This document shows, piece by piece, positions 54,193-56,506 of a DNA stretch of 64,000 bases. Below the pieces are notes generated by a model, which saw nothing but the letters and a program-made list of their open reading frames with translations, searched no databases and was not told where the DNA came from. Location: assembly GCA_046563655.1 (NCBI GenBank), contig CM102289.1, positions 2,480,001-2,544,000 on the forward strand, in the 5' to 3' direction. Position numbers and translations under genes: made by a program. Positions within the stretch are counted from its first letter, which is position 1. The number at the start of each line of letters is the position of its first letter. The DNA comes from Yuukianura sp. NJ FZ-2021. Its lineage: Eukaryota.

Positions 54193-55645
54193 ATGTTTCG
54201 ACATGGTATTCTTATTTTGAAGGCAGTAGCTGTCCTCTTTCTTGCTGTTGGTAAGTGTATCGCAAATAAACTTCTTGCAAAGACGATGTAAATAAGTATC
54301 GTCAGATCAGTTATAGAAAGTTCCCGCGCAGGATATTGTTGACTAGACCTCTGATATGGTTAGAGGTCACTTGAGGTCAAAGAACATTTGGAATTTTAGT
54401 CCTCGCGTCGTCAAACATCCATCCCCGGAAACCATTTCCGCATCGGTCCATTTGTTTCCGAATTGTAGAAAAAAACGAGGACCGTGAGCCTTGACCCTGT
54501 TAGAGGTCACTCGAGGTGATCAAAATCGGATCCCTGCAAACCGCTTCCGAGTCTGTACATCCGTTTCCGTATTGTAAAGAAAGCATAACCTTGACCTTTG
54601 GCACTATTGTGCAGACAGGCAGACGGACAGACAGACAGACAGCCAGACTCGGGAGAAAACATAAAGTAGGTCATGCTTCCCCGACTAGGACGAGGGACGC
54701 CATTTTCAACTTCTATCGTCTGTATCTCTGGAAACGTAGATCAAAGCTCAAGGTCATCTTTAAAAAAGTTGTTCAGCACAATGGGATACACAACTTTTGT
54801 AGAGGCAATTTTTTCGATTTCCGTCAATAGAGTACTTGACCGTGACCTTTGGCCCGGACCTGGACAACTTCCGGTCAAGCTGGACAATGATTATACACCC
54901 CTGGTACATGCGAACCGCAACCGCGAAGACAGATTGGAAATCGGTCCAGTGGTTCTGGAGTTATAGACGCGAATTGCATGAGGCTCGCCATAATGCAACT
55001 TCTAAGGCCTATATCTCCAGAGACCCGGGTCAGAGGTCAAGGTCACCTATACAAAAGTTGTTCGACTCGATGAGACGGACAATTTTTATAAGGGTGACTT
55101 TCCCGATTTCCGTCAAAAAATGTATTTGACCTTGACCTTTGACCCGAACCTGGACAACTTCCGGTCAAGCTGGACACCGATTAATCATCCCTGGACCATG
55201 CGTAGTTGATCTGTGAAGACAGATTGAAAGTCGGTCCAGCGGTTCCAGAGGTATTGTAGCTAGTATACAGACGGACGGACAGACAGACGGACAGACAGAC
55301 GGACGGACATTACGATCCCTATAAGTATCTGACGATACTTAATAATCACACGTATGTTGGCAAAGCTTTAAAATTTCTACTAACTTTCTTAATTTTTGAA
55401 CAGATGCGAGTCACTTTGTGTGCTACAGTGGCAGCTACTACAGTGGCTCAAGTAGAGATATCAGTGCATGCGGTTGCAGCGGTATTCCGCTTCGTGGGTC
55501 CTACAAATGGTATGCTACTGGACAGTCTGCACGAATGTACAACACCCAGGGATGTCAAGGCGTCGCCCATACAACATTGCTGGCAAATTTTAATTCCCAA
55601 AGTCCAAATGGGTTTGGTTGGCAAAGTATGTTCATTGTGTGCTGA
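54193..55645 (+). CDS. MiAMP1-like antimicrobial peptide 1 (54193-54250, 55404-55645)
   Basis: Signal exon plus DASHFVCYSG...ACGCSGI...GSY...TGQSARMYNTQGCQGVAHT...FGWQSMFIVC, colinear with Macadamia MiAMP1. Confidence 0.88.
54294..55340. mobile_element. About 1.05-kb non-autonomous element in the AMP intron, Helentron/DINE-1-like features
   Basis: Inverted ends aagtatcgtcagat / atctgacgatactt; (RGAC)n tracts at about 54612-54645 and 55268-55308; internal direct duplication about 54805-54960 vs 55100-55250. Confidence 0.72.
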
Positions 55646-56110
55646 GAATATTGTAATGCAACCCACAAAAAATTGTGAGTAAAAATAAATACGTGGCATT
55701 TATTAGCGATTTAAATGAGGTTAAATAAAACGTCGATCATGATATAAAATATCTCTGAAAATAGGGAACTTTTATTGTCATGCTTTTCTTTATGACAAAA
55801 ATATACTTTAGAAACCTTAGACACTGCAAGTTAAATTAAGTTGTTAAACAATTTTAAATTTCTTTACAGCGGTCTCGTCTCACACAATACTTTTAAAGCA
55901 ATATTATTTGTTTAGCCTTCATTTCAAGATCAAACACATCTTTAGACAATGGCGATATAAAATACACAATTTATATAAATTAGGAATTGTGATTTCTGGA
56001 AATTGTGACGCTTGGTATACTTTACGCGGTTTGACAGGTTCAGTCATTCAGATCACAGTATAAATTTTCAACAGGTTTGCAACAGCTACAAGAAAAAACA
56101 CATTTTTGCG

Positions 56111-56506
56111 ATGAACATTTTTCGTGCTATGTCTATCCTTGTGGCAATGATAGCAGTCTTCGTTGCAGTTGGTAAGTTATCGTACATACAAAATAGAATG
56201 CTCGAAAAACATAAATTCGACTCTTTTCAGATTTATGTTTAAAAATGCTCAATTTTCGTAGAAGGCGGTAGTAGCCTTGTGTGTTACGACGACCATGCCT
56301 TCAGTGGTGCAAGTGAAATGGTTAATGCATGTGGCTGCAGTGGAATTCCGTTTCACGGGTCGTATAAGTGGAATGCCGACGGGCAGTCGGCGCGATTGTA
56401 CGAAACGGCGAAGTGTCAAGGCGCAGCAGGGACCGTCTTATCCAACAATAGCAATTCTGACGAAGGAGGTGGCATTGCATGGCGAAGCATATTCATAGTG
56501 TGCTGA
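56111..56506 (+). CDS. MiAMP1-like antimicrobial peptide 2 (56111-56171, 56262-56506)
   Basis: Signal exon with the same phase-1 intron; ACGCSGIPFHGSYKW..GQSARLY..KCQG..WRSIFIVC. Confidence 0.88.

Follow-up and report, generated by a model that had tools for sequence, protein, structure and literature searches.

The locus analyzed here, in a 64-kb stretch of DNA (hereafter the window), raises the question of how two genes of MiAMP1, an antimicrobial protein family known mainly from plants, came to lie side by side in an animal genome, and from which source. Antimicrobial proteins gained by horizontal gene transfer show how the immunity of animals acquires new tools, and springtails, which live among and eat soil fungi and actinobacteria, are obvious animals in which to seek them.

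Gene structure, family membership and predicted fold

The window contains two tandem, two-exon MiAMP1 genes on the + strand, designated A (54193–55645) and B (56111–56506), whose features are collected in Table 1. The span that an earlier note on this DNA had given for the pair does begin at the ATG of gene A (54193) and end at the last base of the stop codon of gene B (56506); the correction concerns the start of gene B, whose ATG is at 56111. The start of gene A is the first methionine after an in-frame stop (ORF 54166–54291). The deduced products of the first exons, MFRHGILILKAVAVLFLAV for A and MNIFRAMSILVAMIAVFVAV for B, are signal-peptide-like leaders with one basic residue followed by 14–15 hydrophobic residues, as read from the sequence. 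The predicted introns are in phase 1, occupy the same place in both genes and have the form GTAAGT...AG (donor GTAAGTGT and acceptor ...TTGAACAG in gene A; donor GTAAGTTA in gene B). Since both first exons end one base into a codon and are followed by GTAAGT...AG, we consider that the shared phase-1 intron is real; the description in the earlier note of a signal exon for each gene and a common intron was thus accurate. Additionally, the exon-1/donor junction is homologous between A and B (85% over 27 nt), and the reading frames of both genes are intact.

Table 1. Coordinates in the window of the features of genes A and B (pattern-scan motifs are consensus matches only).
Feature	Coordinates	Strand	Description
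Gene A exon 1	54193..54250	+	ATG, 19 leader codons and first base of split codon
Gene A intron	54251..55403	+	Phase 1, GT...AG, 1153 bp in this haplotype; 77 bp without insertion
Polymorphic MITE-like high-copy repeat in gene A intron	54265..55340		1076 bp
Gene A exon 2	55404..55645	+	Mature MiAMP1 domain, 80 codons including split codon, TGA stop
AATAAA polyadenylation-signal consensus	55684..55689	+	39 nt past gene A stop; pattern scan
TATAAAT box-like motif	56059..56065	+	52 nt upstream of gene B ATG; pattern scan
Gene B exon 1	56111..56171	+	ATG, 20 leader codons and first base of split codon
Gene B intron	56172..56261	+	Phase 1, GT...AG, 90 bp
Gene B exon 2	56262..56506	+	Mature MiAMP1 domain, 81 codons including split codon, TGA stop
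AATAAA polyadenylation-signal consensus	56647..56652	+	141 nt past gene B stop; pattern scan

Genes A and B are true members of the MiAMP1 family. The HMMER comparison with Pfam that had been proposed as a check gave, for exon 2 of each gene, a match to the whole of profile PF09117 (positions 1–76 of 76), with E-values of 2.2e-16 (60.3 bits) for A and 1.4e-15 (57.7 bits) for B, the gathering score being 26 bits; with NCBIfam, neither protein matched any model at E ≤ 0.01. Gene A also aligned with the chain of the solved MiAMP1 structure (1c01_A; E 1.6e-13, residues 4–80 against 2–76) with a single two-residue gap, so that it was correct to describe it as aligning to Macadamia MiAMP1 without large gaps. 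The mature parts of A and B are identical at 44 of 78 positions (56%), in a gapless alignment, and the proposal that the two arose by duplication, in tandem, holds. The UniRef label "lactococcin 972 family bacteriocin", carried by proteins from Basidiobolus and Actinomadura, was rejected because only PF09117 matched at E ≤ 10.

Modeled with AlphaFold2, the mature part of gene A (the only one of the two that was modeled) gave a pLDDT of 96.6 and eight strands. Its top match in Foldseek, and the sole one at E ≤ 0.001, was 1c01 (TM 0.86/0.90, rmsd 1.4 Å, 42% identity), followed by beta-gamma-crystallins with TM values of 0.5–0.7. From this model, gene A is predicted to adopt a MiAMP1-like, eight-strand Greek-key beta-barrel. 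In the ESM Atlas, the best look-alikes of gene A (0.88–0.89) were in clusters of Ascomycota, with a plant MiAMP1 cluster at 0.82 and, at 0.81, a "secreted protein" cluster of arthropods containing 25% Crystall; all of these values are below 0.9 and were taken only as leads.

Host genome and linkage of the locus

The exon of Vps33B present in the window is 52, 51, and 50% identical to those from Folsomia candida, Allacma fusca, and Orchesella dallaii, respectively, with identities falling to 31 and 27% for the named arthropods that come next; judged from this gene, the host is a springtail-like animal. Besides Sec1/Vps33B, the neighbors of A and B in the window include two trypsin genes, genes with ShK domains and an array of 7TM chemoreceptor-like genes, all clearly of eukaryotic or animal type, and a tblastn comparison of the 64-kb window did not reveal any MiAMP1 copy beyond A and B. 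The ESM Atlas look-alikes of a downstream ORF of 656 aa, considered a lead only, were arthropod G-domain clusters (0.86–0.88).

Linkage of the genes to this animal DNA was assessed with four public DNA runs (X1–X4), from two samples and studies. A contig of 11,491 bp from X1 covers positions 55318–59952, comprising the second exon of A, the complete gene B and 2 kb of the gene that follows, with a depth of 37–41 over the genes that equals that of the flanks (25–48). The two exons of gene A are connected in contigs from X2 and X3, and the locus is also covered by X4, from the second sample and study. X2 and X3 also reveal that the repeat in the intron of gene A is an insertion absent from one allele, in which position 54264 is joined directly to 55341. 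The word depth of this repeat is tens to hundreds of times that of its flanks in all four runs; it contains perfect inverted repeats of 15 nt close to its ends (54293–54307 and 55327–55341) and an internal duplication of ~290 bp (direct repeats D2 and D3), and no other copy of it was found within the 64-kb window.

These data bear directly on the contig chimera that the earlier note had contemplated, here taken as a fungal or bacterial contaminant joined to an animal contig, which we regard as extremely improbable. The GC content of the MiAMP1 exons (48–52%) and their GC3 (46–52%) are indeed somewhat above the mean GC of the window (36.6%) and the GC3 of the neighboring genes (29–43%), but the intergenic DNA around A and B is as AT-rich as elsewhere in the window, and all the actinobacterial loci compared are intronless and have a GC content of 69–73%. 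Likewise, among the Logan contig pieces listed none singly bridges a short repeat situated upstream (~53600–53656), whereas the 11.5-kb contig ties both genes to the downstream gene, at a depth equal to that of the flanks in four runs from two samples and studies, and contigs from the runs largely provide continuity at normal depth across 50–60 kb of the window. Moreover, the intron of gene A carries a polymorphic insertion of a transposon that those runs contain in high copy number. The GTAAGT...AG introns, the AATAAA motifs past both stops and the host transposon within an intron give the genes a eukaryotic architecture. The statement that the genes are part of an animal genome and sit among animal genes therefore holds.

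Distribution, relatives and source of the genes

When 1.84 billion representatives were searched exhaustively with HMMER, only 61 proteins were retrieved at E ≤ 1e-3; these stand for clusters at 50% identity, so that a cluster could hide an animal member. Of these, 30 were looked up and 20 carried the name of an organism, corresponding to 5 fungi, 8 plants, and 7 actinobacteria, and no animals; a profile search yielded 23 proteins, 17 of them named and again none from animals. A word-index search with the protein from gene A alone produced only two matches and missed a Basidiobolus protein with 61% identity, and we relied on the HMMER and profile searches. No animal MiAMP1 was found in the literature searched on MiAMP1 or PF09117, and a preprint on the transfer of drosomycin deals with a different family. 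Two supplementary files on F. candida did not contain MiAMP1, PF09117, "antimicrobial peptide", Pantoate or PF07486. Apart from A and B, members of the family come from plants, some early-diverging fungi and a limited number of soil actinobacteria, and an animal MiAMP1 gene extends to Metazoa a small, structurally defined antimicrobial family (61 clusters in 1.84 billion).

Patchiness across plants, fungi and bacteria denotes a complex family history and could be accommodated by ancient vertical inheritance, in which an old eukaryotic family persisted in these hexapods but disappeared from nearly all other animals; a tree with no supported donor clade (see below) would also agree with this. 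Nevertheless, we deem vertical descent very improbable, because an identity of 55–61% to proteins from fungi and actinobacteria, along the entire domain, is far more than a small, fast-evolving secreted protein would have retained since a divergence as ancient as that of animals from fungi or bacteria. Additionally, plant members differ more among themselves than A does from the fungal and actinobacterial proteins, and the absence of animals among the 20 and 17 named proteins, and of the family from the F. candida files, also argues against it. Horizontal acquisition, as proposed in the earlier note, is the best explanation for the presence of A and B.

The nearest homologs of gene A are from Basidiobolus ranarum (60–61% identity), with actinobacterial proteins from Thermomonosporaceae at 54–58% (54–56% for Actinomadura and Actinoallomurus in a comparison of loci); an actinobacterial locus from a metagenome (GC 73%) reached 58%. 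Three further loci, two from metagenomes (L002 and L003) and one from a genome (L009), matched over only 14–20 residues and were set aside. The longest identical run, of 16 residues (GSYKWYATGQSARMYN), was with Actinomadura. Conversely, the 15 canonical plant rows of the alignment are 33–48% identical to A and 30–39% to B.

Both A and B carry cysteines at four of the six columns typical of plants (pattern x-C-C-C-x-C), with the first and fifth plant cysteines absent, whereas 13 of the 15 canonical plant rows display the full six-cysteine pattern. With two of the six columns lacking cysteine, A and B belong in the MiAMP1 family but outside the plant-type subgroup. The region of the C-terminal loop is of 28 residues in both proteins vs. 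26–27 in all 15 canonical plant rows, and this loop together with the x-C-C-C-x-C pattern is common to A, B, five of the six fungal rows and both eukaryote-like rows. Among the 26 actinobacterium-like rows, 17 have the 28-residue loop and 23 retain a single pair of cysteines. In the window proteins, both the arrangement of cysteines and the ASHFV motif at the N-terminus fit the fungal-type rows.

In a tree of 55 rows and 85 columns, in which 26 of 52 inner branches were left open, all the canonical plant rows grouped in a clade with 90/96 support that excluded A and B, while the pairing of A with Basidiobolus had a support of only 38/77. Forcing A and B as one clade resulted in a likelihood slightly above that of the tree from the free search (p-AU 0.50). 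This phylogeny, which had been suggested as a check, places A and B outside the clade of the plant rows, but it does not contain a supported donor clade, and a grouping of the window genes with 13 canonical plant-type rows, at a cost of 23 lnL units, was not rejected by the AU test (p 0.096).

This last result is among those favoring a plant-to-animal transfer, with a plant MiAMP1 captured, for instance, from eaten plant litter, as are the definition of the family in plants and the predominance of plant proteins among its known members, in a family described as "96% eukaryal" (PMC9903846). Furthermore, Stephania cephalantha carries, on a 50-Mb contig, atypical copies that are 55–56% identical to gene A, so that an atypical plant source of the Stephania type is conceivable. 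We consider a plant donor distinctly unlikely, given the lower identity of canonical plant proteins as compared to those from fungi (reaching 60%) and actinobacteria (reaching 58%), the two missing cysteines, the longer loop, the exclusion of A and B from the plant clade and the lower likelihood of the constrained tree. The designation of the genes as plant-type in the earlier note is not supported: a family named after plants need not point to a plant as donor, and the closest relatives are the proteins from Basidiobolus, actinobacteria and the atypical Stephania copies.

Taken together, A and B are intact nuclear genes of a springtail-like hexapod that probably derive from a single horizontal transfer, with a soil microbe as donor, followed by an old tandem duplication. 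The donor would have been a fungus similar to Basidiobolus or Mortierella or an actinobacterium similar to Thermomonosporaceae or Streptosporangiaceae, and between these the evidence is split, since the 16-residue run is shared with Actinomadura and the cysteine pattern is of the fungal type. The signal exon and its phase-1 intron may have been gained by the transferred gene, or retained from the donor, before the duplication.

Putative function and comparison with known systems

The product of each gene would consist of a cleavable signal peptide, encoded by exon 1, and a Greek-key beta-barrel of ~78 residues, encoded by exon 2, and would be secreted, e.g., into the gut, cuticle or hemolymph. 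If expressed, these disulfide-stabilized extracellular proteins might be inhibitory to fungi, and perhaps also to Gram-positive bacteria, like plant MiAMP1 and the one actinobacterial member tested, and it is in this conditional sense that they could be called domesticated antifungal effectors, as they were in the earlier note. The two paralogues differ in charge, A being basic (pI 8.7) and B acidic (pI 5.0), which suggests that the pair probably diverged in target or in the conditions of action. The acidic paralogue B is unlike a classical cationic antimicrobial protein. Each mature protein contains five cysteines, an odd number, and the position of the extra one is not occupied by cysteine in any of 51 homologs; this fifth, lineage-specific cysteine might permit covalent dimerization or some other novel mode of action. 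The springtail genes thereby add to the family a natural four-plus-one-cysteine variant and a pair of basic and acidic paralogues that can be directly compared in assays.

It is also conceivable, if unlikely, that the genes were acquired but are no antimicrobial effectors, being instead neutral passengers with little or no expression, or having been re-used in another extracellular role, such as binding or digestion of fungal walls or signaling. The acidity of B can be read in this way, and so can that of the fungal-type relatives P0006, P0007, and P0010 (pI 4.9–5.2); besides, an established mechanism for MiAMP1 itself was not found in the literature consulted. Against this reading stand the reading frames that are intact after an old duplication (dN 0.38 and dS about 1.8, i.e., saturated), a dN/dS of 0.21 between A and B and the conservation of the signal exons, and the tested members from a plant (PMC7886984) and an actinobacterium (PMC9903846) were antimicrobial. 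Returning to acquisition with retention of an effector role, a more specific scenario can be offered only tentatively, and we would not bet on all of its parts: A and B may be the first animal MiAMP1 genes, captured from an eaten or infecting fungus or actinobacterium, provided with a signal exon and duplicated, giving rise to a basic and acidic pair of secreted proteins that protects the animal, its gut or its eggs against soil fungi.

The best known member of the family is MiAMP1 from Macadamia integrifolia (PDB 1C01, "beta-barrelin"), with which the window proteins share the full length of PF09117, the eight-strand barrel (modeled for A), four of six cysteines and a precursor with an N-terminal leader (predicted for A and B). 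They differ from it in their animal host, the absence of the plant-only cysteine pair, an extra cysteine in strand 1, a C-terminal loop region longer by two residues, the acidic nature of one paralogue and the phase-1 intron after the leader. The fungal proteins, from B. ranarum (KAK9703259 cluster) and Mortierella, show the top identity (60–61%, for Basidiobolus) and, in five of six fungal rows, the same four-cysteine pattern and loop, and a leader followed by a mature part starting with ASxFVxY also occurs in P0006 and in the Mortierella protein P0010; the fungal PF09117 proteins lack the fifth cysteine and are uncharacterized. Actinobacterial proteins annotated as "MiAMP1 family antimicrobial peptide" (from Actinomadura, Actinoallomurus, Streptosporangiaceae, and Streptomyces) resemble the window proteins in their 54–58% identity and the 16-residue run, but differ in their single cysteine pair (in 23 of 26 rows), leaders of the Sec/Tat type, high GC content and lack of introns. 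One of them, from Streptosporangium becharense DSM 46887, inhibits the yeast Saccharomyces cerevisiae and possibly forms a dimer (PMC9903846).

At a wider scale, MiAMP1 has been placed among proteins with a beta-gamma-crystallin precursor structure (PMC7886984). The model of gene A shares with the beta-gamma-crystallin superfamily the double Greek-key fold, with crystallin-type domains as the next structural matches after 1c01, and the relation is at the fold level only, since neither A nor B had a match in Pfam to Crystall or other families at E ≤ 10. The superfamily includes microbial members such as the yeast killer toxin WmKT and a killer-toxin-like protein from Streptomyces.

Foreign genes are already well known in springtails, with a cluster for the biosynthesis of beta-lactams in F. 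candida and other Collembola and hundreds of foreign genes, about 30% of them fungal in origin, in Orchesella cincta (PMC10051947; PMC4987106), so that A and B do not represent a new kind of biology. [quoted passage not shown] In common with these cases of transfer, genes A and B would exemplify a soil microbivore acquiring microbial weapons; in those cases, however, the weapons are enzymes and pathways, whereas A and B encode ribosomally made proteins of an antimicrobial family.

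Two MiAMP1-family genes and their structure

The earlier note had read two MiAMP1 genes into this stretch, and database comparisons bear this out. The exon-2 translations of two small plus-strand genes of common architecture, A and B, cover the Pfam model PF09117 (MiAMP1) from its first to its last position, with 60.3 and 57.7 bits, respectively, against a gathering score of 26, and match no other Pfam family at E ≤ 10. The solved structure of Macadamia MiAMP1 (1c01_A) aligned to gene A with a single two-residue gap (E 1.6e-13), and an AlphaFold2 model of the mature part of gene A, built on a 53-row alignment, has eight strands and a mean pLDDT of 96.6. 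Foldseek retrieved 1c01 as the sole match to this model at E ≤ 0.001 (TM 0.86/0.90, rmsd 1.4 Å, 42% identity), followed by beta-gamma-crystallin-type domains with TM of 0.5–0.7. A tblastn search found no third copy in the window.

Both reading frames are intact, and both introns are in phase 1, placed where the hydrophobic leader meets the mature domain. The 5′ regions of the two genes can be aligned only across the junction between exon 1 and intron (27 nt, 85%, E 2.6e-4); because this junction still aligns, the intron is older than the duplication. The mature parts share 44 of 78 residues without gaps, with dN of 0.38, a saturated dS of about 1.8 and a ratio of 0.21; judged from these sequences, the genes duplicated long ago and have both stayed under constraint.

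Mature A and B have five cysteines each. The additional cysteine, in strand 1, occupies a column where none of 51 homologues has Cys and most have Ala or Val. Its presence in both A and B dates it to before the duplication. Given the small hydrophobic residues of homologues at this column, it could be a free thiol that is buried, and a role in a covalent dimer is possible. The predicted product of A is basic (pI 8.7) and that of B acidic (pI 5.0), as are several fungal-type relatives.

Features of the window (signals are consensus matches only)
Feature	Position	Strand	Description
7TM chemoreceptor-like array	366–20542	-	at least eight two-part genes
Hydrolase_2 frame	3669–4097	+	142 codons, intronless
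PanB gene	41198–43257	+	multi-exon, N-terminal extension
Trypsin-like genes	44700–45581, 47571–48462	+	near-identical
ShK-domain genes	46023–46316, 48646–49116, 49192–49632	-	three ShK domains in the last
Cys-rich frames	50529–50945, 52567–52905	-	paralogous; motif CDCQFYW.CD
High-copy repeat	53600–53656 (approx.)		short
Gene A exon 1	54193–54250	+	ATG 54193; encodes MFRHGILILKAVAVLFLAV plus one base of a split codon
Gene A intron	54251–55403	+	GTAAGT...CAG
Gene A exon 2	55404–55645	+	finishes split codon, then 79 residues, TGA stop
AATAAA	39 nt past gene A stop	+
TATAAAT	52 nt ahead of gene B ATG	+
Gene B exon 1	56111–56171	+	ATG 56111; encodes MNIFRAMSILVAMIAVFVAV plus one base
Gene B intron	56172–56261	+	90 bp, GTAAGT...TAG
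Gene B exon 2	56262–56506	+	TGA at end
AATAAA	141 nt past gene B stop	+
Large gene	57890–64000	+	P-loop (GNTGSGKST) near start, Gly-rich segments, long coiled-coil-like exons

Relatives and probable donor

An exhaustive HMMER search over 1.84 billion cluster representatives returned only 61 proteins at E ≤ 1e-3, 21 of them at E ≤ 1e-10 and none at E ≤ 1e-30. Names were checked for 30 of the 61, and the 20 with an organism name comprise five from fungi (Basidiobolus ranarum and four Mortierella), eight from plants (three Stephania, one Papaver, two Pinus and two Cryptomeria), seven from actinobacteria (Streptomyces, Streptosporangiaceae, Herbidospora and Embleya) and none from animals. There was likewise no animal among the 17 named of 23 proteins retrieved by a profile search of a 90%-cluster database, which added Anthurium, Colocasia, Macleaya, Selaginella, Adiantum and Actinomadura. 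Scanning one prokaryotic genome per species revealed full-length relatives, 54–56% identical, in five Actinomadura/Actinoallomurus species, at intronless loci of 69–72% GC, and metagenomes yielded one full-length locus (58% identity, 73% GC). These actinobacterial relatives agree with a report in which a Streptosporangium becharense member inhibits yeast and may give a dimer band (PMC9903846).

The genes had been called plant-type, a label that the comparisons do not uphold. Gene A is 60–61% identical to its Basidiobolus relative and up to 58% to those of actinobacteria, against 33–48% (median 40) for 15 canonical plant rows. Two discrete characters agree with this. Where plant members have their six cysteine columns, A and B read x-C-C-C-x-C, a pattern found also in five of six fungal rows and in the two unnamed eukaryote-like ones; all six cysteines occur in 13 of the 15 canonical plant rows and two only in 23 of 26 actinobacterium-like rows. 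From the fourth canonical cysteine to the C-terminal one, A, B, five of six fungal and 17 of 26 actinobacterium-like rows have 28 residues, and every one of the 15 canonical plant rows has 26–27. At the start of its mature part (ASHFV.Y.G.YYSG), A is nearly identical to an unnamed protein (P0006) and to one from Mortierella (P0010). Counting against a fungal-type affinity, the longest run identical to gene A, 16 residues (GSYKWYATGQSARMYN), is common with Actinomadura.

A maximum-likelihood tree of 55 rows (the two window genes and 53 database proteins; 85 columns), leaving out six long multi-domain and four partial proteins, did not resolve the branches around the window genes. These fell outside a clade with 90/96 support that unites every canonical plant row with six actinobacterial ones and one from Stephania. 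Constraining A and B to group with 13 canonical plant-type rows cost 23 log-likelihood units, which is not significant (p-AU 0.096), and making A and B sisters gave a tree at least as good as the unconstrained one (p-AU 0.50). Taken from the sequences, a non-plant donor is likely, and the cysteine and loop characters tilt the odds somewhat towards a fungal rather than an actinobacterial source. The donor may also have been an atypical plant lineage, an atypical Stephania pair being 55–56% identical to gene A. The Stephania cephalantha copies (P0004, P0005 and P0036) lie on one 50-Mb contig, near one another by locus tag; they are of a fungal/actinobacterial type, with four-Cys-type columns and 55–56% identity to the springtail gene, and their predicted C-termini continue into unrelated sequence. 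They may represent a separate transfer or mis-modelled genes.

A probable springtail locus

The host was judged from neighbouring genes, which include a Sec1-family gene, two trypsin-like genes, ShK-domain genes and a 7TM chemoreceptor-like array. A Sec1/Vps33B exon of 453 residues is 52, 51 and 50% identical to its homologs in Folsomia candida, Allacma fusca and Orchesella dallaii, respectively, versus 31% and 27% for the next named arthropods; the window therefore belongs to a springtail, or to an animal closely related to springtails, that is about equidistant from those three.

Five public runs, all DNA, from two samples and two studies, contain the stretch, and four (X1–X4) were compared over 50500–60000. 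An 11,491-bp contig from X1 spans 55318–59952, taking in the second exon of A, the whole of B and 2 kb of the gene that follows; its 202 letter differences and 42 gaps indicate another haplotype or individual. Depth in X1 was equal over the genes (37–41) and their flanks (25–48), and X4, from the second sample, covered the locus bins at low depth (1.9–4.2; flanks 0.5–12). In X2 and X3, contigs join 54264 straight to 55341, so that 54265–55340 (1076 bp) is an insertion polymorphism, and gene A's intron measures 77 bp without it. Perfect inverted repeats of 15 nt stand close to the ends of this insert, and a segment of about 290 bp is duplicated inside it; in all four runs it was covered tens to hundreds of times more deeply than single-copy sequence. 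A contaminant or chimeric contig is strongly disfavoured, because a high-copy host transposon sits in the intron, contigs bridge the locus and its depth equals that of the flanks. At 48–52% GC and 46–52% GC3, the exons of A and B lie slightly above neighbouring genes (GC3 29–43%), which hints only faintly, if at all, at a GC-richer source.

The short repeat upstream of gene A reaches about 50–70 times the flanking depth in bin 53353–53669; many contigs break there in all four runs, and among the Logan contigs listed it is the only unbridged spot between 50.5 and 60 kb.

Elsewhere in the window, the trypsin-like genes alternate with ShK-domain genes in a block that has been duplicated and lies shortly upstream of the MiAMP1 pair, and the Cys-rich frames, which had no Pfam match, are direct upstream neighbours of gene A. 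The large downstream gene gave weak Pfam P-loop matches only; its Atlas look-alikes, arthropod "G domain-containing" clusters (0.86–0.88), offer a lead only. The 7TM genes all end in VVVTNTIMLLQM[FV], with a weak, below cut-off match to 7tm_6 (E 1e-4), and are a lineage-specific receptor expansion. Among chemoreceptor-like genes lies a frame matching Hydrolase_2 (PF07486, SleB/CwlJ-type bacterial cell-wall hydrolase) over its full length (E 2.5e-10) and TIGR02869 (spore_SleB) weakly, with no match among PDB sequences; it is a candidate for another foreign gene in the same 64 kb. The first exon of the gene at 41198–43257 matches ketopantoate hydroxymethyltransferase (PanB; PF02548/TIGR00222), and by eye, from PanB motifs and unscored, we take at least five further frames downstream to be PanB-like exons. 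To our knowledge, animals normally lack pantothenate synthesis, making this already intron-bearing gene a third candidate foreign gene.

Possible action and known systems

By analogy with plant members and the single actinobacterial member tested (PMC9903846), the leader would send the protein into the secretory pathway, and the mature beta-barrel, with two disulfides, would be released extracellularly and inhibit fungi and perhaps Gram-positive bacteria. The MiAMP1 family resembles yeast killer toxins. Plant MiAMP1-type proteins are described as antimicrobial (PMC7886984), and springtails feed on fungi and actinomycetes (PMC10051947), have genomes rich in foreign genes, about 30% of these fungal in Orchesella cincta, and carry a beta-lactam biosynthesis cluster (PMC4987106, PMC10051947). 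Because of this diet and the many foreign genes, both contact with a donor and a selective logic are plausible.

A survey of Collembola antimicrobial peptides lists five families, MiAMP1 not being among them (PMC10051947); the family was not found in two Folsomia candida supplementary files, and a literature search for MiAMP1 or PF09117 brought up no animal in the excerpts retrieved. Within the literature examined, no MiAMP1 gene of an animal has been published. The present case opens no new category and is of moderate interest, as a further, probably horizontally acquired, putative defence gene of a soil invertebrate.
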